Source: TPA_inf: Saccharomyces
Lineage: Eukaryota
Assembly: GCA_000146045.2 (NCBI GenBank)
Contig: BK006945.2
Coordinates: 960,001 to 1,024,000 of the forward strand
Direction: 5' to 3'
DNA: 64,000 nt
The translations under genes and the position numbers were made by a program. The notes beneath the pieces were generated by a model. That model ran no database searches. It saw nothing but the letters and a program-made list of their open reading frames with translations, and was not told the DNA's origin. Positions within the stretch are counted from its first letter, which is position 1. Each line of letters begins with the position of its first letter. Shown here in pieces: positions 2,972 to 22,893 of the stretch.

Positions 2972-3055
2972 TGAAGGATGCGAGGTTCGAACTCGCGCGG
3001 ACAACCGTCCAACAGATCTTAAGTCTGCCGCCTTAGACCACTCGGCCAACCCTCC
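2972..3055 (-). tRNA. tL(UAA): tRNA-Leu, anticodon UAA, 84 nt with a long variable arm, no intron
   Basis: The reverse complement reads GGAGGGTTGGCCGAGTGGTCTAAGGCGGCAGACTTAAGATCTGTTGGACGGTTGTCCGCGCGAGTTCGAACCTCGCATCCTTCA. It has an A box (TGGCCGAGTGG), a B box (GGTTCGAACC) and the anticodon loop CTTAAGA, giving anticodon UAA. Confidence 0.9.
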
Positions 3056-3182: not shown

Positions 3183-3546
3183 TGTTGGTAAGCCTCTGAA
3201 AAATTTATCAAATACTAGTACAATTGTTTACCAACATCATTTTCGTTGCTAGAAAATTACTATACACCGTTAAGAAAAGACATAAATCATGAGACTAATA
3301 GAACAACACTAGGGATTAGCCAATTTAATGGGAGCTGAAATGCAGGGATTAATTATGCAATTACAAAATGAATGGTATCGTTTGAAATGAAAGAAGAAAC
3401 ACTAATATTATAACATAGAAATATCGATTTCTTCCTGCGAATTCCCATGTCCTCGTTGAGAACTTCTAATATGTTTTGTATGCCTAATATTATAGCTTTA
3501 CAAAAAAATAGAATCTCAACAATTATCCCACAATTCACTCATGTCA
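3183..3546 (+). repeat. Degenerate solo Ty LTR (delta/tau-like), about 130 bp upstream of tRNA-Leu
   Basis: It starts TGTTGG and ends ...CACTCATGTCA. Internal blocks are alignable to the Ty1/Ty2 delta: GGGAGCTGAAATGCAGGGATTAATTATGCAATTA vs GGAAGCTGAAACGCAAGGATTGATAATGTAATA, and TCCTCGTTGAGAACTTCTAATATGTTTTGTATGCCTAATATTATAGCTTTA vs TCCTCGAGGAGAACTTCTAGTATATCTACATACCTAATATTATAGCCTTAA. It is heavily diverged, so it is an old insertion. Confidence 0.6.
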
Positions 3547-11695: not shown

Positions 11696-11916
11696 TATGT
11701 CAGAAGTTGTTCACTATAAAATATACGCATATGTAATCATTTATTTATTCATTCATGACTTTTAGTTGAAAAGGGCACATTTTTCTTTGTCGTAAAAGTG
11801 AAGAAGACAGCGAATTTTTTCCTTTCTCCTTCAAGTATTGCTTTTTTGATAAAGTATTTTTCGAAATATTGATACAATTATTGAATCTTTGTACCGTATC
11901 CTTTTTTTCCTTTTTT

Positions 11917-13170
11917 CTAAGGATTCTTCACGTTGTAATTTAAAGTGTACAGGGAAGAAAAATCGTCAATTTTACCGGGCCAGATTGTCTCAGGAAGATA
12001 AGTTCCATTTTCCGCTATAAAATTCTGACGTTCTTCCTGGTCCTGAGCATCTAAATTCTGCAACTGCTTTTCACAATCTTTCAATATAGTTTTCATTCTG
12101 TTTGCCACATCCTTTCTCCTCTTTGCTTCTAGAACTAAGTTACCGTAGCTTTCTTCAAAATTATCATAAAATTCACAAAGTTCCTTAGTTGTTTGAATAT
12201 CTTGTGTACAGGAATTTTTGAAGCTATCAATCAGATTGGAAATATCTTTAAAGATTAATAGATATTCCAAATTTCTATTGAAATCGTTTATTATTTCAGA
12301 AACTTCGCTGTGTAGTTCTGTCTTTTCCTTTATTTTTGCCTGCAAAAATTGACCCAAGTTAAGAATTGTTTTGTCCACGTCATCAATTACCTCATGCAGA
12401 GTTTTGAAAATGTTGTATAGTTCTTTGTCGTCGCCTTGTACCACCTTAAACAGCTCCTCACGTTCATCGTTATCAATTTTTTTATCTTGTAACAGCAATG
12501 TCTTATCAAAGTGCTGTGTCAATGAATTCATTATCTCTGCTAAATCTTTTTCAAGGTCCGTTAGTTCCCTGCTAAACTGCTCTGCAACATTTGTTTCCAT
12601 CAGGTTATCTATACCAAATTTACTTTGGAATTTTTGAGTTACGTCCGTCAACTTGGTATCAATCAGTTCTTTGTTAACTTTTCTGACCATATTTTCGTAT
12701 TGAAGCTTAATGTTTTCAATTTGACGCTCAATTACTGGCACTTCTTTCAGTTTGTCATTCAATAAGTTAACGTTGTCTCTCGAGATGTAATCTCCTAGTT
12801 TAGAGGGATCGGTATCATCTTTTTCTGATATGCTCAATTCATTTACTATACCATCCAACCTTTGTACTTTAGAAGTGATTTCATATTGCCAGTACTTCAT
12901 CTCATCAACTAAGACCACTAAGACAGCTTGATTCCATTGTTTCTGGATTAGCTTTGTCCCAATGCCTTCCTTTAAAATAGTGTAAAGAAACTTTCCTTGC
13001 TGTCTCAAGCCAACTATTAGAAAATTGAGTTTTGAAATACTCAACTGCCAAGATGACAATTTTTTCTTAATATCTACAATCCTTAAATTAGCACTTGAAC
13101 ATAAAAGTTGAGCATCGGTCAGCGTTTTCCTGGCATTATTAACAAATTTTGTAACATCTGCTTCGTTCAT
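11917..13170 (-). CDS. ATG17: Autophagy scaffold protein Atg17, 417 aa
   Basis: The N-terminus [38 protein letters not shown] and the coiled-coil-rich 417-aa length match Atg17 (YLR423C). Confidence 0.85.
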
Positions 13171-13394
13171 AGGTGTTAAATACGTTGATAATATCCTCGC
13201 AGTATCGAATTTATCGTACGTTATGCGACTTTCAAATAATTATCAAGTTAGGGATATCTTGCAATTTTTAATACTGAGGCCTTAGAGCGCGCATCTAGTA
13301 TTTACATTATGTCAAAACAATAACAAAAATCCAAAATTTCGAAATAGTACAACCGAGAGAGGTCGAAGAACTTAAGCCTTCAGTACGCCAAAAC

Positions 13395-15521
13395 ATGGAG
13401 GATTCGGACTCCAACACAGATAAAAAGTTCTTTTTCAAAAAAAGAAGAATCGATTCCTATAATTATAGCGATGAGGAAGATAATAATTCAAGCATGAATA
13501 GTGACATGACATACACTAATGATGCCTTGAAAACTAGTAGCGGCAATGCCCCAACGATCTCAAAATTAACGAAGACATATGGTATTGGTGCGAAGTTACT
13601 TTCGAGTATGGGATATGTTGCGGGAAAAGGCCTTGGGAAGGATGGTTCTGGTATAACTACACCAATAGAAACCCAAAGCCGACCTATGCACAATGCAGGT
13701 CTAGGAATGTTTTCAAATACCAACTCCAGTAACTATCACAGTGAAAATGAGGATTACTTGAGCTCTGAGGATGAGGTGGTTGAAGGTATAGAACAAGTCA
13801 AATTCAATAAAACCTCCACGGAGGTTTTAGGCGAAGCGTTGTTAAATGATAGTGGTGATATGACTATAGTGCGAACACTGAGAGAATTGAGGTTAGCAGG
13901 GGTACAATTACCAGAGAGTATCCTAAAAGAATTAGACCCTTTAAATGCAGTACCAAAGCCGAAAAAAGATGTTGTTGTGGAGATATTGCAAGAGCTGCTG
14001 GGTATTGAAAAAAGTTTGGAAGCTATTCGTCAGCGCACCTCTCCGTTAGAAGTGCAAGTCAAAGAATATTATGGACAAGAGAGGCTTCTTTCTGAATTGG
14101 AGGTTACTTTGAGGGACGAAAGCAAGCATGTTTCCCTGTATGATAAGATTGGTGCTATTTTAAAATTGTCCGACGACGAGCTCATAGATAGGCTAACGTC
14201 CTGCTTATTGAGAAAAGAATTACTAATAGAATTTGATTTGGATCATTTAGAAAAGCCAAACGATATACTTGATGAGTTAACGCAAATTATAGAACTACTC
14301 GCATATAGAATGGATACAACTTCGAAATTTTTGAACAGGACACAAACAACAATCTTTAAAGTTATATATCCCAAACTCAAAAAATTTTGGGAAGGGTTTG
14401 ATATGACTAAATCAAAAATCGACAGCGCTATCACCCTATTACTGGATTTCCAACAAGTGCTAAGTTTTATCGGGTGTAAAGAGCATATCATGGAGGAATT
14501 CGTCTATCCAAAGCTATTACAGGAATTAGATAATTGGGAACTTCACGATGAAGTAGACCATGTTTCGCCAAGAATATGGGTCTTGGATTTTATGGTTTTA
14601 ATTGACGATAAGATCAAAGACACAATTGTGGACAAGATTGAAGCAAAATTTTTTGCTTATTGTAAAAATTGGTACCATAGGGAATCATTTTGTATCACTA
14701 ATTCTGATATTATATTTATCAAAGAACTTATCTGCGAACGAAGATATTACAAAATTTTATGTAAAGAGTTTCTTCCTAAATTCCTGGACGAGCTGTGGGA
14801 AAGACATAATGACCCCATCTACGAGTTAGAGGATTGGAAGGAAAAACAGGAATGGAAAGAAAAAGATTCTGGATTTTTCTATTTTATGAAAAAACTGAGA
14901 AGTTATACCCATTATTTTCATCCAAAACAGTATGAATTGATGATGCGGGGAACCTTTAATAATATAAACAAAATACTCTATCAATGGCATCTTTATAGTA
15001 CAGTGGAAGACTTACACAAGTCAAAGTGGTGGCTTAATTGGCTGATGAATACGGTATTTGAGCACTCTTTACCAACAGAAATAGAACTATCGGAGATCAG
15101 AAAAAGCTATAATATATTCGCTATGTCTCATAGGTACCACCTTGATAAATCTACATTAGATGAAGATTTCGATTTGAGACAGGGTTTACGAAACTTAATG
15201 GAAACACAAGTGATCGACGATATTAGTCAAAGCGAACAAGAACCTACCTATACTGTACAAAATATTCCGCTTGGAAAAGTTAGCAGCTCTTTCAAGGATG
15301 TGGTAGAAGACTACTGCCTGGAAAAAGGGTACTTGATCAGCAAAATACCAAATAGGTACACTCAACTGCCATATGGAAGAGACCAAGATTGTATAGTTCC
15401 TTTATTTGAGATCCGAAACGGGAAGAAAAAAATGGAAGTTGCTTTGAAACATGATATTCTTTGGGTGGAGGATTCCAGTGGGACCTTTAAGCCAATTTAT
15501 TTATGGGCCCTTGACCTCTAG
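13395..15521 (+). CDS. SPP382: G-patch spliceosome disassembly factor (Ntr1), 708 aa
   Basis: A G-patch motif (GIGAKLLSSMGYVAGKGLGKDGSGITTPIE) and the 708-aa length match YLR424W. Confidence 0.85.
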   Translation: MEDSDSNTDKKFFFKKRRIDSYNYSDEEDNNSSMNSDMTYTNDALKTSSGNAPTISKLTKTYGIGAKLLSSMGYVAGKGLGKDGSGITTPIETQSRPMHNAGLGMFSNTNSSNYHSENEDYLSSEDEVVEGIEQVKFNKTSTEVLGEALLNDSGDMTIVRTLRELRLAGVQLPESILKELDPLNAVPKPKKDVVVEILQELLGIEKSLEAIRQRTSPLEVQVKEYYGQERLLSELEVTLRDESKHVSLYDKIGAILKLSDDELIDRLTSCLLRKELLIEFDLDHLEKPNDILDELTQIIELLAYRMDTTSKFLNRTQTTIFKVIYPKLKKFWEGFDMTKSKIDSAITLLLDFQQVLSFIGCKEHIMEEFVYPKLLQELDNWELHDEVDHVSPRIWVLDFMVLIDDKIKDTIVDKIEAKFFAYCKNWYHRESFCITNSDIIFIKELICERRYYKILCKEFLPKFLDELWERHNDPIYELEDWKEKQEWKEKDSGFFYFMKKLRSYTHYFHPKQYELMMRGTFNNINKILYQWHLYSTVEDLHKSKWWLNWLMNTVFEHSLPTEIELSEIRKSYNIFAMSHRYHLDKSTLDEDFDLRQGLRNLMETQVIDDISQSEQEPTYTVQNIPLGKVSSSFKDVVEDYCLEKGYLISKIPNRYTQLPYGRDQDCIVPLFEIRNGKKKMEVALKHDILWVEDSSGTFKPIYLWALDL

Positions 15522-15982
15522 AAAGTACCTATAAAAGAGGTGAGATAGGCACGATTTATATATTATTGTCGAAAAACAAAATTGATTAGATTACTAAATA
15601 AATAATAATTGCATTACCATTTTTAGACAATGGATTAATTTAAAGTGGAGTCTATTAATTCCCCTTATTTGATAGTTGTTGGTATTTTGCCCTTGAAATG
15701 TTTCCAAAATTTATTGTTTAAACTTTTATACTTCGCTAGACTCTCGTAGTTAGACTGTTAAGAGTTGTGGCAGAAGGAAACGAGTTTCGGATGGGATCAA
15801 AGGACCTTTTTTATATCAAGATCAAATGGAGCTGTTATTTTCCAAGAAAGACAGAAGAAAGCCCGAATGTGGCTAAGTAGTGAGCCTAATCAAGTAGTCA
15901 GCTTCACTTGATATTAGTTTATACGATTACTATTTTAATGGAGTTTTTAGCTCACTAAATAATTTAATGCAAAAAAAATAAA

Positions 15983-16056
15983 CGACCCCAGTGAGGGTTG
16001 AACTCACGATCTTGCGATTAACAGTCGCACGCCTTAACCAACTTGGCCATGGAGTC
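15983..16056 (-). tRNA. tN(GUU): tRNA-Asn, anticodon GUU, 74 nt
   Basis: The reverse complement reads GACTCCATGGCCAAGTTGGTTAAGGCGTGCGACTGTTAATCGCAAGATCGTGAGTTCAACCCTCACTGGGGTCG. Anticodon loop CTGTTAA gives GTT. The B box is GGTTCAACCC. A T-run terminator follows on the minus strand (plus strand aaaaaaaataaa at 15971-15982). Confidence 0.9.
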
Positions 16057-16257
16057 TTTTATTTCCGATATCTGCTGAGTTAAAAATTATATAATATTAT
16101 TGATAGCTTCTATCATTGACCTTCAATTACTTATGTTGGAATATCAAAAATGTGAGATTTTTTTTTTCAAATAGTTTTGAAGAATCAGCGAATAATTTGA
16201 TACTTTTTGGGATTCTTGTTAGTAACGGCTATTGTTGGAGTTAAACTTCTTTAAATT

Positions 16258-16589
16258 TGTAGAGTATGTGGATTTTGATGTAATTGTTGGGATTCCATTG
16301 TGATTAAGGCTATAATATTAGGTATGTAGATATACTAGAAGTTCTCCTCGAGGATTTAGGAATCCATAAAAGGGAATCTGCAATTCTACACAATTCTATA
16401 AATATTATTATCATCATTTTATATGTTAATATTCATTGATCCTATTACATTATCAATCCTTGCGTTTCAGCTTCCACTAATTTAGATGACTATTTCTCAT
16501 CATTTGCGTCATCTTCTAACACCGTATATGATAATATACTAGTAACGTAAATACTAGTTAGTAGATGATAGTTGATTTTTATTCCAACA
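16258..16589 (-). repeat. Ty2 3' LTR (delta)
   Basis: It differs from the 5' LTR at 3 positions out of about 332: A/T at 16265 vs 21375, G/A near 16353 vs 21463, and A/G near 16417 vs 21527. Confidence 0.9.
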
Positions 16590-16611
16590 TACCACCCATA
16601 ATGTAATAGAT

Positions 16612-19600
16612 CTAATGAATCCATTTGTTAGTTAATAGTTTAAATGTTTTTATCGGAAGAGGTTTTGTCATCACATCAGCAATGTTCTTCTTGGTCTCGA
16701 TGTAGTATACGTATAAATTATTACCTGATACTTCATCTCTAAGTCTCATTGCCTTTGTGCCAAAAAATCTGTTTCTAAATTTCTCTTCATTTATTTCTAG
16801 TTCATCCTGGTCTATATAATGACCTGGTTGACCTGGAGCTCTAAGTTTCTTTCCTTTTGGGTTCAAAGGTACGTTTAGTTTGGGTAATTTTTCTGTCAAG
16901 GATTTTTCCATACCTAATTTCATGTACTTGCTTCTTTGATATTTGATCTCTAATCCAAGTATGTCGTACTGAATTTCGTTATCACCTTCACCCAGATTTA
17001 TTATCTTTGTATCGTATTGTTTCTTGAGTGTTGTTATGATTTTCTTATTTGCATTTAAGTCTTTGCTGAATAATATCATATCATCAACGAATAAGCAAAT
17101 TGTTACTTGACTATTCTTAAATACGCATGACCATCCGCGAACTTCTTGCATGTCGCAACAATTTATTAAATATGATTTAATGGTTTCATACCAGTTTGCA
17201 CCACTTTGTTTCAAACCATAGAGTGATTTTCTCAAACGTAGTAACTTATCATTCAAACCTAAATGTGGTGGAGGTCTTATGTATAATTCTTCTTTGATAT
17301 CAGCATATAAGTAAGCAGAGGATATGTCCAGCTGTGTGATATAATAGTCATTGTCTAATGCGATTGACAATGACGTCATCAGTGCATAGTGATGTACGGT
17401 ATTGGATTGCATATCAGAATCATATGTATCGGGGTGTTGAATGTCGCTTCTTGCAACAAATCTAGCTTTGTGTGTACCATCACGTTTCTTGTTAAATATA
17501 AACATTGAGTTTATTACTTTTTTAGGATCTATGTCATTTCTATCATAATATTTGTTTGTATCCCAAGTGTTCATTTTCAATAGTTGGCTAATTTCTTTAT
17601 GATAAGCTTCAACATATCTGTCTTTTTCTTTGTTGTCTTTATTATATGTAATTGCTTCATCATATCTTAAGGTCGTTCGAACTGGTTTGATCGATTTCAC
17701 TCCTTTTATTGCTGCAATTAAATTTATGCGTTTCTTCGATCTTGGTGGTTCCAGACTTCTCATATTCTTATTATTCCATGTGTCTCGGGATACCTCAATT
17801 TCAGTTTCATTATCTTCTAATGATCTTTTCTTACTTTTGGTAGTAGTCAGAACATTAGAATCATCCATACCACCCAAACTGGAATTAGTCTGACGAGAGT
17901 GTATGTGTGGAATATCTTTTGAAACATCAGAAGTGTCCGTAGGAGATTTATGGGTTAAGTCAGGAAGTGGGAGGTCGTCAAGAATAGAATCAGCCGTAAC
18001 ATTTTTTGAGGATTTGTCAGGCATTATATTAGGAGTCGCATGGTCAGAAGATCGATATTCTGGCGGATCCGTATCAATGGAGGGTGTATTATCACATACA
18101 GCCTTTGTTTCTATGGAGATGATGGGAGTAGTGGATTCACTGTTGGACGAACGGTCATCTATTGAGGGCGTACTATTTGTAGTCCTGTATTTGATATTTG
18201 TATCACTATTTCGTTGAATATATGGTTCCTCCGTACCACCCAAACGTGTAGTTTTGATGTTTTCAAGTCCATAATTAACTCTATCCTGTGAGGTCAAATC
18301 AATCATCTCATTGGTACTACCAGGTCGGTTTTGGTTTCGTGCAGTGAAGGTAGACGAGTGTCTAGGTGAAGTAGTATCTGATTCAACGGTACCACCCATT
18401 TCGGTACTCTCTTTATTAATGATATGGGGTGTACGAGATCGTATAGTAGATGGAAGAATATTGTATTCAGATATGTCGGCATCAACTTCTTTTGGTGCAC
18501 GTACTTTTTGGACTGGTTCCTTGTCTAATTGTAAAGGGTTTATTGATTGGGACGAGAAGTCGTTCACTAGAGGATCAGAGTTTATTTCAATCTCCGATTG
18601 ATAGTCATGATCAGATTCTTTATTTTGATCATATGACTGCTCTGTTTCATTTTGTTCAATAAAAGATTGGTTATGGGCTGTTAAACGATTGAGATCATCA
18701 TCAAAAGTGAGTGTATCGTAGTCGAACTGGTCCAATTTCGTTTGCTTGTTTTGTAATATAACGTAATTGGTAGTATCTACTGTCTTTTTTAAGGATGGAA
18801 GATAGATAATATAGCCATAAGAGTTTCGTGATGGATGTAAGGCGTAACCTGGAATGCCACGAGGATGTATTTTCGAGTCGGGATTATGGTTGTTAACTAT
18901 AACCGGTTGACCGAAAGGTAGTATAGTAGTAATGTCCAGTCCAGCTAAACCTGCATGTTGTCTTGCAGATTTATCGTTTTTTGGTGAGACTAATGAATTT
19001 CTGATTATAGTAGAAAATTCGACTGCTGAGAACCATAGATGATTTGGTAGACCACTGCAATGAAGCAGTGTGCGACAATCGTTTAATAAAGTACGATTTA
19101 ATCGTTCAGCGACACCGTGTGCTCTAGAATCTGCCGTGGTTGTATAGCATGCAGTAATACCTCTGTTCGTAAAGAACTTATGAAGAGTTTTGTTAGTGTA
19201 CTCGGAGCCACGATCCATCTGGATAACTAGAACGCGAGCATTGAATTGGTTCTTAATAAATGCTAATATCGATGTAAAAACATTGAGGATAGATTCTTCA
19301 CGACGGTCGTGTAATGGGTACACCCATTGGAATCTGGTTTTCTCATCTGTAAACGATATAAAGTAAGAAGGTGCACTTTTCGGTAAGTGATGTACAGGAC
19401 CAAATATATCGGTATGCAAGTACTGAAAAGGCTCATATGATTCTTGGTACTTTAGTCGTGATCCTTTGACATGCCTATGTTTCGTGCTTTTGCCGATTAG
19501 ACAGTCAGGACATTGATATGTGCTAGCGTTAGACCATTCAATATCCGATTCTTTCAAATATGTAACTGCATTCTTCTTAAGAGACTTCTGAATACTTCGG

Positions 19601-20118
19601 AAGTTAGCATGTCCAAGCATTCGATGTATTAACGGATATGGATATTTATTTACGCTTTTGCTTTTGTTGACGTTGTTTATTGTTAGCTTTGAAATGTGCG
19701 AAGGAATTAGGTATTTTTTAGATAACCAGTAAAAGTCTCCATGTTTGACTATGGGAGCTAGTACTGTACCATCCGATCTTTCTAAAGTGTTTCTGGTAAA
19801 GCAGGCAGTAATATTTTGGTTAGCCAGCTCACTCAAACTTAATAGATCATAGGCTATGTTTGGTGTGTGTAGTGCTTTTATTGATGTTTTGGTGCCGTTC
19901 TGAAAGTTGAAGTGAAGATTACCAATGGCATTTATAGGAATGTCTTGTTTTTGAGCATCGACTATGTTTATTTCAGAATTGGGTGTTGCATGGTGTAAAT
20001 AATGGGCTGATCTGACAAGCGTTTGCGAAGCTCCTGAATCAATAAGAAGGTGATCAGGTAGTTCGTCATTCGAGTCTATTGTGCGTGTTGGCTTAGATTC
20101 TTTCTGTTGCTGGCCTAA
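16612..20118 (-). CDS. TYB: Ty2 TYB (Pol: PR-IN-RT), expressed by +1 frameshift from TYA. The RNase H domain is missing (about 1169 codons versus about 1339 expected)
   Basis: The ORF runs continuously from the CTTAGGC frameshift site to NKWIH*. The translation reads ...[15 protein letters not shown]|[19 protein letters not shown].... This skips the segment that in intact Ty1/Ty2 contains the RNase H catalytic motifs (ISDASYG, TEAE, TDSKS). Confidence 0.8.
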
Positions 20119-21409
20119 GACTAAGTTCGTTGTCATCGCTTAAGTATTGTGATGAAACGGTTGATTCATTAATGTGATCATTGTTCACCCTTGAGAATTT
20201 ACTGGATGTAGCAATATTGTGAGCTTTTGCTGCTCTTGGTTTTGAACTATTTGTTCTATGATAATTACGAGTTGTAACCTTCGTGTTAGTCGTGTTTGGA
20301 GATGTGCGAGAAACATTTTTGTATTCGCTGTGTTGTTTGTATTGGGACGGTTTATTTAGATTCATGATTTTATTTTCGTCATATATTAATTGAATTTCAG
20401 CGAATAATTGGGAAAGTTTCATGTTCGTTTTGGTACGATATTGATTACGTAGGTATTTGAAATCACCGGATAGACCTTTAAGTATTAGTTGACAGGCCAA
20501 TCTGTCGCTAACATTGATATTGTTTTCTTTTAGCCTTTGAATGATCGTGCTGACTGTAATTTCAAATGTATCAGCAGATGTACTTCCGTTGTACTCAAGG
20601 TTGGCAAGAGCTATCCAATCTTTTAATTCTTGATTGTTAGTTTGCATTTTGGACACACTTTTACAAAGGACAGTAAGGATGTCAGAATAATTAATTTCTA
20701 AAATTTGTTTTACCCATGTTGGCAATAAATGAAATGGGGCAAATGCTTGGAAGGTATTGTATATATACGCATGTTCTTCATAAGTCATTTGTCTTTTGAT
20801 TTCACCCTGGTCATTTGGAATAATGTCACCGAGATTAGAGTTCTTCAAAAATCTGATGTAAAATTTAACCCATGTAGAAAAGTTTTCTTCTGATGTTAAA
20901 GTGTGTGGTGGTAAGACATTATTTCTCACCTTTGTCTTAGCTTGAGGTACTTCAGAGTGTTGATCCTGTGAATCGATTGGATCAGGTGAGGAAGTACTCA
21001 GCGGTGGGATATACTGTGGCAGCGGATAGTGTGGGTCCGGTTGATAATACGCAGGTGACGTTTGATAATGTGAACACGTCATCATAGATGGTTGTTGGTA
21101 ATGTGCCCAGTTAGAAGCCATAGCTTTGTTTGGGGTCATCATGCCGTGCTGTTGGTACTGTCCATTCTGTGGAGGTGGTACTGAAGCAGGTTGAGGAGAG
21201 ACATGATGATGGTTCTCTGGAACAGCTGATGTCCCAGGTGTTGTCTCTTCTTGAGAATTAACCTTAGTGGAATCTCTATCAAATTCCGGTAAATTGGAAG
21301 CTGAAACGGCTAACGGATCTTGATTTGATGGGACTTCCTTAGAAGTAACCGAAGCATAGGCGCTACCATGTAGAGAATGTGGATTTTGATGTAATTGTTG
21401 GGATTCCAT
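20093..21409 (-). CDS. TYA: Ty2 TYA (Gag), 438 aa
   Basis: A 438-aa ORF of Ty2 type. Its C-terminal region overlaps the TYB frame. Confidence 0.9.
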
Positions 21410-21700
21410 TGTGATTAAGGCTATAATATTAGGTATGTAGATATACTAGAAGTTCTCCTCAAGGATTTAGGAATCCATAAAAGGGAATCTGCAATTCTAC
21501 ACAATTCTATAAATATTATTATCATCGTTTTATATGTTAATATTCATTGATCCTATTACATTATCAATCCTTGCGTTTCAGCTTCCACTAATTTAGATGA
21601 CTATTTCTCATCATTTGCGTCATCTTCTAACACCGTATATGATAATATACTAGTAACGTAAATACTAGTTAGTAGATGATAGTTGATTTTTATTCCAACA
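21368..21700 (-). repeat. Ty2 5' LTR (delta). TYA initiates inside it
   Basis: It matches the 3' LTR at all but 3 positions. The internal junction reads ...TCTCTACA|TGGTAGCGCC on the minus strand. Confidence 0.9.
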
Positions 21701-22893
21701 GGTTCACACGAAGATTGAAAGTGTGGCCACGCTAATTTAGTTTATTAGGGAAATGCTCCTGGTCAGTTCTAATTCACCCAACGTAGCGCGGAATATTTTA
21801 AAGTTAATATAGTATTTCGATATGACAAGCACCTCTAAACAAAAGGTTATTTTCGCTTTTGTTCATTGAGCGTGTACTTCAAGCCTGATCCTGCTTTTTC
21901 TTCTGATTTGATCTGATTCGATTAAGCAAGCGGTACTACCCTAAAACCGCCATCTGTTGTAATATAGTAACGTCGCAATAAACCTGTCATATAATTAGCA
22001 GCTAATCCTTATATTCCATCTCCTCAATTTGTGATATTTATCGTATATAATTCCCATTTCAGACCGTCATTTAGTAGTAGGCATCTAACTATGGAACGGC
22101 TTTACCCGATCTTGGTATGTATGCCATAATGTACTACCGCTATCGATTTACCTTAACCCTAACGAGTGTCTCTAGCCAGTATTTTAAACTTCCATATCAC
22201 AACTAATGTTGAAGATTGTATAATAAAAACATCAAGCTATTTAATAGATGCGATTAATCTCCTAATCGAAAACAGTTTGTTCGGTGTCCAAATACTGTTT
22301 TAGTGGACTATGATAAACGTTATAACAGCTATTTTGACTAAAACAACCGTAAATTTACACAGATAGGTGTTCACAGTAATTTTTTGGGGAGTTAGGTCGA
22401 AATCTTTTCCAAAACCAGTCATGCAAAGGAAATGCGTCAACTTTTGGGGACTTTTCCCCTACTCAAACACAGTTAGTCAACATTTAAAGGTTGTGTCTTT
22501 ACTTAAGAGAAAATTAACTGAGCTTCGGTCATACATACGTAATTTCGCTGCTTCCAGTCGAGCAGTTGGTGCGCTATAATCATTTGATGTTTTTAGCTTA
22601 CGGCTTCTTAAGATTTTCTATTGTTCATACTGACTCGTCGCATAGGCCGCAATATAAATCATTTAGAGAAAACGTTAACACATCGTTTAGGTAAACAACC
22701 CCTAGAGAGGATGATCAGTACGCAATATAACTGTTCAAAATCCATTTCTTGCATCAATATTTTATTCAACTATTATTTCTGGAGGTTTTAGTGGTTCTGT
22801 ATACCCCCTCCAGCCACTGTTATGAACAATTAATTGATACTACTTCGAATATAAACATTAAAACAAAAAACTTATTGAGTGCAGCAAGTTAAC

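Follow-up and report, generated by a model that had tools for sequence, protein, structure and literature searches.

YLRCTy2-2, a defective Ty2 retrotransposon of yeast chromosome XII with an in-frame deletion across reverse transcriptase and RNase H that probably arose by template switching

How does a retrotransposon that keeps both of its long terminal repeats (LTRs) and an open reading frame (ORF) come to lack part of its polymerase, and what could such a copy still do? The question is raised by a 64,000-nucleotide stretch of Saccharomyces chromosome XII (contig BK006945.2, positions 960,001 to 1,024,000 of the forward strand; hereafter the window, in which positions are given unless another sequence is named), whose minus strand carries at 16258-21700 an LTR retrotransposon of 5443 bp, delimited by its LTR pair and by comparison with intact Ty2. 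This element is YLRCTy2-2, a Ty2 of S. cerevisiae chromosome XII: its 1598-aa conceptual Gag-Pol, read from TYA to the frameshift site and then in the +1 frame, equals UniProt P0C2J5 at every residue, and with a 516-bp gap excluded its DNA is 99.3% identical to the intact Ty2 of metagenome scaffold L002, which measures 5958 bp. An initial annotation, made from the letters of the window, had already recognized a Ty2 and proposed that an in-frame deletion of about 170 aa, or about 510 bp, had removed its entire RNase H domain. The nature of the element and the approximate size of the loss hold, and the boundaries require revision.

Intact Ty2 references were taken from contigs encoding the identical TYA protein (L002) and, through a protein cluster look-up, from Ty2-C (P0031, NP_009909.2); a homologue search returned fragments only and no full-length Ty2 Gag-Pol. 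In an anchored nucleotide comparison with L002, YLRCTy2-2 is short of exactly 516 bp, or 172 codons, and the missing residues are 1540-1711 of the 1770-aa Gag-Pol of Ty2-C. Across the breakpoints, the intact sequences (the 1346-aa TYB ORF of L002, and P0031) read DQDELEI-DEDEYKEK...[172 aa]...TISIIKST-NEEKFRN; intact copies have the 172 aa, as the initial annotation had supposed, and the motifs it had listed as lost, ISDASYG (1623), TEAE (1664) and TDSRS (1699; given there as TDSKS), all lie inside the missing stretch. The junction, A-A-ATGAAGA, stands at 16784-16792 on the minus strand, within the interval 16770-16810 where it had been placed, with the 7-bp repeat ATGAAGA at 16784-16790 and the 516 bp absent. 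Neither the protein nor any reading frame of the window contains a further copy of the deleted segment. The 29-mer GAACTAGAAATAAATGAAGAGAAATTTAG that marks the junction occurs once in the window and in 0 of 100 shuffles. The deletion is real, because three assemblies, produced independently by different projects, have the identical junction at this locus, namely L001 (GCA_002571405.2), L005 (GCA_947370305.1) and L012 (GCA_029991815.1). A sequencing or assembly artefact, such as a collapse between the repeats, is rejected on these grounds and on that of the UniProt record P0C2J5; nothing was found in its favour, and it deserves practically no credence.

Pfam, which the initial annotation had suggested as a check on RNase H, is uninformative here: even the intact Ty2 TYB has no match to an RNase H family in Pfam-A, its matches being to the same five families as in the deleted copy, and the RVT_2 match ends at profile position 197 of 244 in both. 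A PDB sequence search with the intact fragment spanning reverse transcriptase (RT) and RNase H (RH) gave no match. The domains were delineated on a structure model of an intact Ty1-type RT-RH fragment (P0003, 438 aa; canonical residue = model residue + 1332), obtained with AlphaFold2 from an 18-sequence alignment (mean pLDDT 82, pTM 0.84). Foldseek matches this model to MMLV/XMRV reverse transcriptase across about 450 columns and, along about 140-180 columns, to numerous structures of type-1 RNase H (E. coli, human, HIV, MLV and PFV). In model numbering, the deletion runs from residue 208 to residue 379. It takes away three RT thumb/connection helices (model 209-268), which hold no catalytic residue, and then, within the RNase H fold, β1 (286-295) with the D of ISDASYG, β2 and β3 (305-323) without a catalytic residue, αA (331-357) with the E of TEAE, β4 (361-367), just after which lies the D of TDS, and αB (370-377), again without a catalytic residue. 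Retained are αD (387-402) and β5 (406-409), both without a catalytic residue, and αE (416-420), which accompanies the Asp of NIADVMTK; alignment, model and profile place this 59-aa C-terminal part of RNase H at 16615-16791 on the minus strand.

According to the D/E/D/D columns of homologue alignment A2, the catalytic carboxylates D1625, E1665 and D1700 are lost and D1750, the Asp of NIADVMTK, is kept; its column is conserved in all homologues reaching it. An RNase H profile of 167 positions, made from those columns of the homologue alignment that represent RNase H, covers residues 1602-1770 of intact Ty2 (profile positions 1-167) and only residues 1540-1598 of the deleted protein (positions 109-167). 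The loss therefore comprises the N-terminal 65% of the RNase H fold together with 62 aa of RT thumb/connection upstream of it, and 35% of the fold stays. Removal of the "entire RNase H domain" was thus an overstatement that is correct for most of the fold and three carboxylates; the deletion is not confined to RNase H, and one catalytic residue does persist in the ORF, as D1750 at the C-terminus. Neither the complete fold nor the set of four catalytic carboxylates of a functional type-1 RNase H is present, and the RNase H active site is missing in YLRCTy2-2.

Such an element would still encode Gag, protease (PR), integrase (IN) and a truncated RT. Without RNase H, the RNA in RNA/DNA hybrids would not be broken down, and strand transfer and priming from the polypurine tract (PPT) would fail, provided that the established scheme of retroelement replication applies. 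The polymerase is probably crippled too, judging by the missing thumb helices and by the substitution G1321S in the RT motif FVARGD (codon AGC at 17446-17448 on the minus strand, GGC in intact Ty2), a position at which Gly is kept in every homologue covering it (alignment A2); the substitution is common to the L001, L005 and L012 alleles. From the lost RNase H activity we infer that YLRCTy2-2 is non-autonomous, a pseudogene. The cis elements are kept beside this defective coding capacity, as expected of a non-autonomous LTR element: the primer-binding site (PBS), the 5' packaging region, the PPT, the LTRs and 203 bp of internal sequence beside the 3' LTR. The cis requirements of a mini-Ty1 amount to 380 nt of 5'-terminal and 357 nt of 3'-terminal RNA (PMC4974528); with its junction 203 bp upstream of the 3' LTR, YLRCTy2-2 keeps more than these minimal cis regions. 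Because they are retained, copying by intact Ty2 or Ty1 proteins would be possible in principle, which agrees with the initial view of a copy that is not autonomous and conceivably mobilized in trans.

The way in which the 516 bp were lost has left traces at the junction. In intact Ty2, the left breakpoint reads ...GAAATA G ATGAAGA TGAATAC... and the right breakpoint ...TCTACA A ATGAAGA GAAATTT..., and the deleted copy reads ...GAAATA A ATGAAGA GAAATTT.... The motif ATGAAGA stands at both breakpoints as a direct repeat of 7 bp without a mismatch, and with the two preceding bases (A-R-ATGAAGA) the match is 8 of 9; the base 5' of the repeat in the deleted copy is A, as in the downstream copy, and not the G of the upstream copy. 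The ATGAAGA-like microhomology that had been proposed is therefore present as a perfect repeat, and the junction is not clean, its flanking A deriving from the downstream copy. In a simulation on intact Ty2, perfect microhomology of at least 7 bp accompanied 0.08% of random 100-1500-bp deletions, and among all 516-bp deletions of intact Ty2 it occurs only for placements at the ATGAAGA repeat. Because such a repeat is so rare among random deletions, the junction makes a homology-guided event a well-supported reading.

Retroviral and Ty reverse transcriptases are known to make short-direct-repeat deletions through template switching, and a history of this kind appears probable for YLRCTy2-2. The reverse transcriptase would have switched template during minus-strand synthesis, from repeat to repeat, generating the 516-bp deletion; the copy would thus already have been defective, or dead on arrival, at its insertion. 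The insertion itself took place with an AAATT target duplication beside an older solo LTR, and in the lineage to S288C, as the comparison of alleles shows, a crossover between the 5' LTR and the solo LTR eliminated a 140-bp spacer and one LTR, so that the element now lacks matching target duplications. The donor-side base at the mismatch would fit a minus-strand switch from the downstream repeat to the upstream one.

The later part of this history is recorded in the alleles of other strains, which were fetched through the identical protein of a neighbouring G-patch gene (which we take to be SPP382) and amount to 10 alleles from 24 contigs read. Empty alleles (L008, L009, L013 and L014) have AAATT, the 140-bp spacer and GGTTC in succession (about 11860-12000 in L008 and L014), and others (L007 and L011) have only the solo LTR, right of the spacer and bounded by GGTTC on both sides. 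The ancestral Ty2 arrangement is found in L012 at 11864-17788, with the deleted Ty2 between two copies of AAATT, then the spacer, then the solo LTR between two copies of GGTTC, whereas the S288C type, seen in the window, L005 and L001, has the deleted Ty2 only, the spacer and one LTR being gone. Throughout its 5443 bp, the L012 element matches the window copy without a single difference (100% identity). By this comparison of alleles, the S288C arrangement is the crossover product of the Ty2 5' LTR and the solo LTR, and variable LTR positions map the exchange to plus-strand LTR positions 160-332. AAATT at 16253-16257 (plus strand), doubled around the element in L012, is the remaining copy of the 5-bp target-site duplication (TSD) that belongs to the Ty2 itself, and GGTTC at 21701-21705 (plus strand) is, as seen from L012 and L011, a TSD copy of the former solo LTR and not of the Ty2; the 5' LTR (21369-21700, minus strand, 332 bp) is joined in S288C directly to the flank of that former neighbour. 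The 5-bp TSD expected of a Ty2 is thus absent from the window (AAATT versus GGTTC) and present in L012 (AAATT/AAATT), a mismatch that is explained by the later LTR-LTR crossover and is no argument against Ty2 membership. Nested old LTR fragments were considered as the cause of the missing TSD and rejected, the allele comparison being the simpler and more direct explanation. The deletion is older than the crossover, because L012, with the pre-crossover arrangement, already has the deleted Ty2.

Whether the deletion also preceded the insertion separates the template-switch account from its principal alternative, according to which an intact Ty2 was inserted and shed the 516 bp only afterwards, in the chromosome, when replication slippage or microhomology-mediated end joining (MMEJ) took place between the ATGAAGA repeats. 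Either process would likewise be guided by this 7-bp repeat, and the element has resided at the site long enough for three LTR differences and an LTR-LTR crossover, which make a chromosomal loss possible, if the less probable course. It finds no intact allele in its support: all three Ty2-bearing alleles with sequence examined (L001, L005 and L012) have the junction, and no intact Ty2 occupies the YLRCTy2-2 site among the 10 alleles sampled, which, in so small a sample, speaks slightly for a deletion that accompanied or preceded insertion. The precedence of the deletion over the crossover and the identity of L012 with S288C over 5443 bp point the same way, and neither observation is decisive. 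Several considerations weigh against a template switch. Even in the L012 allele, which has its TSD, 3 of the 332 LTR positions are different between the two LTRs, a divergence that implies residence, or gene conversion, over a time sufficient for events after insertion; and the same product could result from replication slippage or from microhomology-mediated repair of the chromosome. The junction also departs by one base from what the repeat alone would have produced on the consensus sequence. To account for this base, one must assume an intermediate that contained a mismatch, a progenitor with a variant sequence or a G>A change at a later time; such a progenitor, such a change or slippage in the matching direction would fit it too. 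In addition, the strain sample is small (24 of the contigs in 137 index blocks). The loss of polymerase function, for its part, is argued from the thumb helices and G1321S. A switch of template during reverse transcription nevertheless remains the most likely origin and is favoured here.

Two further readings concern what became of the deleted form. It might define a non-autonomous Ty2 sublineage propagated in trans, with YLRCTy2-2 as one of several daughters, given that all cis sequences for trans-mobilization are kept and the reading frame is open. However, the same deletion was not found at several sites: the junction occurs at one locus only in the window, L001, L005, L012 and the other sequences searched, which are no comprehensive set of yeast genomes, the 29-mer has 0 matches in metagenome and prokaryote-genome contig collections, which hold little yeast DNA, and the Ty2 scaffolds L002-L004, with an identical TYA protein, are intact at the deletion position, all of which leaves such a sublineage improbable. 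It is more doubtful still that the truncated Gag-Pol has been kept for host benefit, as a dominant-negative Pol or a source of Gag that damps Ty1/Ty2. The frame is preserved, and the insertion is present in 10 of 16 scorable SGRP strains (Carr 2012, PMC3511429, File S2), which is high for a full-length Ty2, but one third of random deletions are in frame anyway, a conserved RT Gly has been substituted (G1321S), and the locus varies strongly between strains, some alleles being empty and others having a solo LTR, as for a neutral insertion. The protein would have to be expressed and packaged in virus-like particles, where it would act as a dominant-negative RT-RH or as extra Gag and lower Ty1/Ty2 mobility, a sequence of events to which we attach very little probability; if it were true, the lowered mobility would help explain the intermediate population frequency.

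Outside the deletion, the element has the anatomy of a Ty2, an LTR retrotransposon of Ty1/copia type (Pseudoviridae). Two direct 332-bp LTRs, of the form TGTTGG...CTCTACA, are 99.1% identical, the 3' LTR (16258-16589, minus strand) having 3 mismatches to the 5' LTR. The PBS, TGGTAGCGCC as read in the sequence, adjoins the 5' LTR at 21359-21368 (minus strand) and is complementary to the 3' end of tRNA-iMet, and the PPT, GGGTGGTA, abuts the 3' LTR at 16590-16597 (minus strand). The PPT core GGGTGGTA recurs three more times inside the element, at 18397, 18241 and 17875 (minus strand) in the IN/RT-coding region, and one of these copies may match the central PPT described for Ty1. The TYA (Gag) ORF (20093-21409, minus strand) encodes 438 aa with a Pfam TYA match at E = 8e-204, and the +1 frameshift heptamer CTTAGGC is found in the TYA frame at 20113-20119 (minus strand); fusion at this site to TYB reproduces the UniProt entry exactly. 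The TYB ORF (16612-20136, minus strand, stop included) encodes 1174 aa from its first ATG, comprising PR, IN and the truncated RT-RH, and its Pfam matches follow in the order Pol_BBD, gag_pre-integrs, rve, SH3_retrovirus and RVT_2, with the RH remnant at the C-terminus, which is the copia gene order PR-IN-RT-RH. Both LTRs, the PPT and the frameshift site are therefore intact, as the initial annotation had stated. It had likewise described PR, IN and RT as otherwise intact, and the PR DSGAS motif, the IN HHCC (H-x3-H ... C-x2-C) and D,D-35-E motifs and RT FVDDM are indeed identical to those of intact Ty2, but RT carries the private G1321S.

The exact Ty2-LR2 protein match and the nucleotide identity to intact Ty2 establish a Ty2 rather than a Ty1 type. 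Across the 1598 residues in common, Ty2-C (YCL019W, NP_009909.2) and YLRCTy2-2 differ at 20, and the substitutions private to YLRCTy2-2 with respect to six other Ty2 sequences are D887N, S890T, N896D, T930K and G1321S. The reference yeast genome has 13 "full-length" Ty2 copies, YLRCTy2-2 among them. Two observations on the comparison sequences may be recorded. Ty2 Gag and RT/RNase H fragments have been deposited as "hypothetical protein [Streptococcus uberis]" (GAA5351190.1 and GAA5349144.1/WP_461254127.1), most likely owing to contamination of bacterial assemblies with yeast DNA. In the metagenome scaffolds L002 (1-12566), L003 and L004, Ty2 appears as head-to-tail LTR-internal-LTR-internal arrays, which could reflect several copies collapsed during assembly, a tandem Ty2 or circular Ty DNA.

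YLRCTy2-2 lies between the G-patch ORF (13395-15521, 708 aa), which adjoins an ATG17-like gene, and an ORF starting at 22879 that encodes a RhoGEF, 1307 aa long in other assemblies and presumably TUS1. A tRNA-Asn(GTT) gene is located at 15983-16056 on the minus strand, and the Ty2 is inserted 202 bp upstream of it; the region upstream of Pol III genes such as tRNA genes is the usual target of Ty1 and Ty2, and the position of YLRCTy2-2 is that of a typical Pol III-targeted insertion. Other alleles contain further structures close by: L006 has at 11847-12678 an additional solo LTR, inverted and about 15 bp from the Ty2 site, and L010 has at 12010-13335 a truncated LTR, an inverted 0.5-kb fragment (97% to window 17442-17968, in the Ty2 RT-coding region) and another LTR piece. 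With these additional and independent LTR insertions or rearrangements, all within about 160 bp, the stretch upstream of tRNA-Asn is a polymorphic insertion hotspot. The 140-bp spacer absent from S288C (L012 17307-17456) includes a segment that looks like an old, degenerate delta LTR, TTACTAGTATATTATCATATGCGGTGTAAAAAGATGAC.... Elsewhere in the window, a degenerate solo delta at about 3220-3538, with 67% identity to the Ty2 LTR across 3322-3538, lies by tRNA-Leu(TAA) (2972-3055); it is YLRWdelta24, scored as fixed in SGRP strains (Carr 2012, PMC3511429).

Because of the exact protein match to UniProt P0C2J5, the element is already on record, and neither YLRCTy2-2 nor its putative-pseudogene status is a new finding. 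The record, from strain S288C, is named "PUTATIVE PSEUDOGENE: Transposon Ty2-LR2 Gag-Pol polyprotein", and the 438-aa TYA protein is an exact match to P0C2J6, likewise marked as a putative pseudogene; an exact-protein look-up of the 1174-aa TYB ORF gave no record, and no paper in the literature searched mentions Ty2-LR2 or P0C2J5. In a published survey (Carr 2012, PMC3511429, Files S2/S3), the element chrXII_u24-_TY2, labelled TY2, is YLRCTy2-2 (chrXII 976255-981697, 5443 bp); the RepeatMasker fragments of its internal region are broken at 976791/976792, that is, window 16794/16795, which is the deletion point, and the element was classed "Full, Active" on LTR criteria. This LTR-based class overstates the competence of YLRCTy2-2. 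What is added here is an exact map of the loss, namely RT thumb/connection and two thirds of RNase H with the last catalytic Asp kept, together with natural alleles that show a Ty losing its TSD when it crosses over with a neighbouring solo LTR. The deletion is genuine yet unremarkable, and the understanding of Ty biology is unchanged.

Compared with known systems, YLRCTy2-2 is the same object as UniProt P0C2J5/P0C2J6 and SGD YLRCTy2-2, with nothing that differs, although those names say only "putative pseudogene". It shares with Ty2-C (1770-aa Gag-Pol) the LTRs, PBS, PPT, TYA, frameshift site, PR, IN and RT palm, and is distinguished from it by the absence of residues 1540-1711, by G1321S and by the lack of a matching TSD in S288C. 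Experimental mini-Ty1 donor elements, reportedly described by Xu and Boeke in 1990, offer a functional parallel. Like such donors (PMC4974528), it has an internal deletion, keeps the terminal cis sequences and would require helper proteins, but the engineered elements lack up to 5 kb, whereas YLRCTy2-2 is natural and lacks 516 bp. With the short-direct-repeat deletions produced by retroviral and Ty RT template switching it has in common the boundary at a 7-9-nt repeat, of which one copy is kept, and the retention of the donor-side base; for YLRCTy2-2, a chromosomal origin is also possible.

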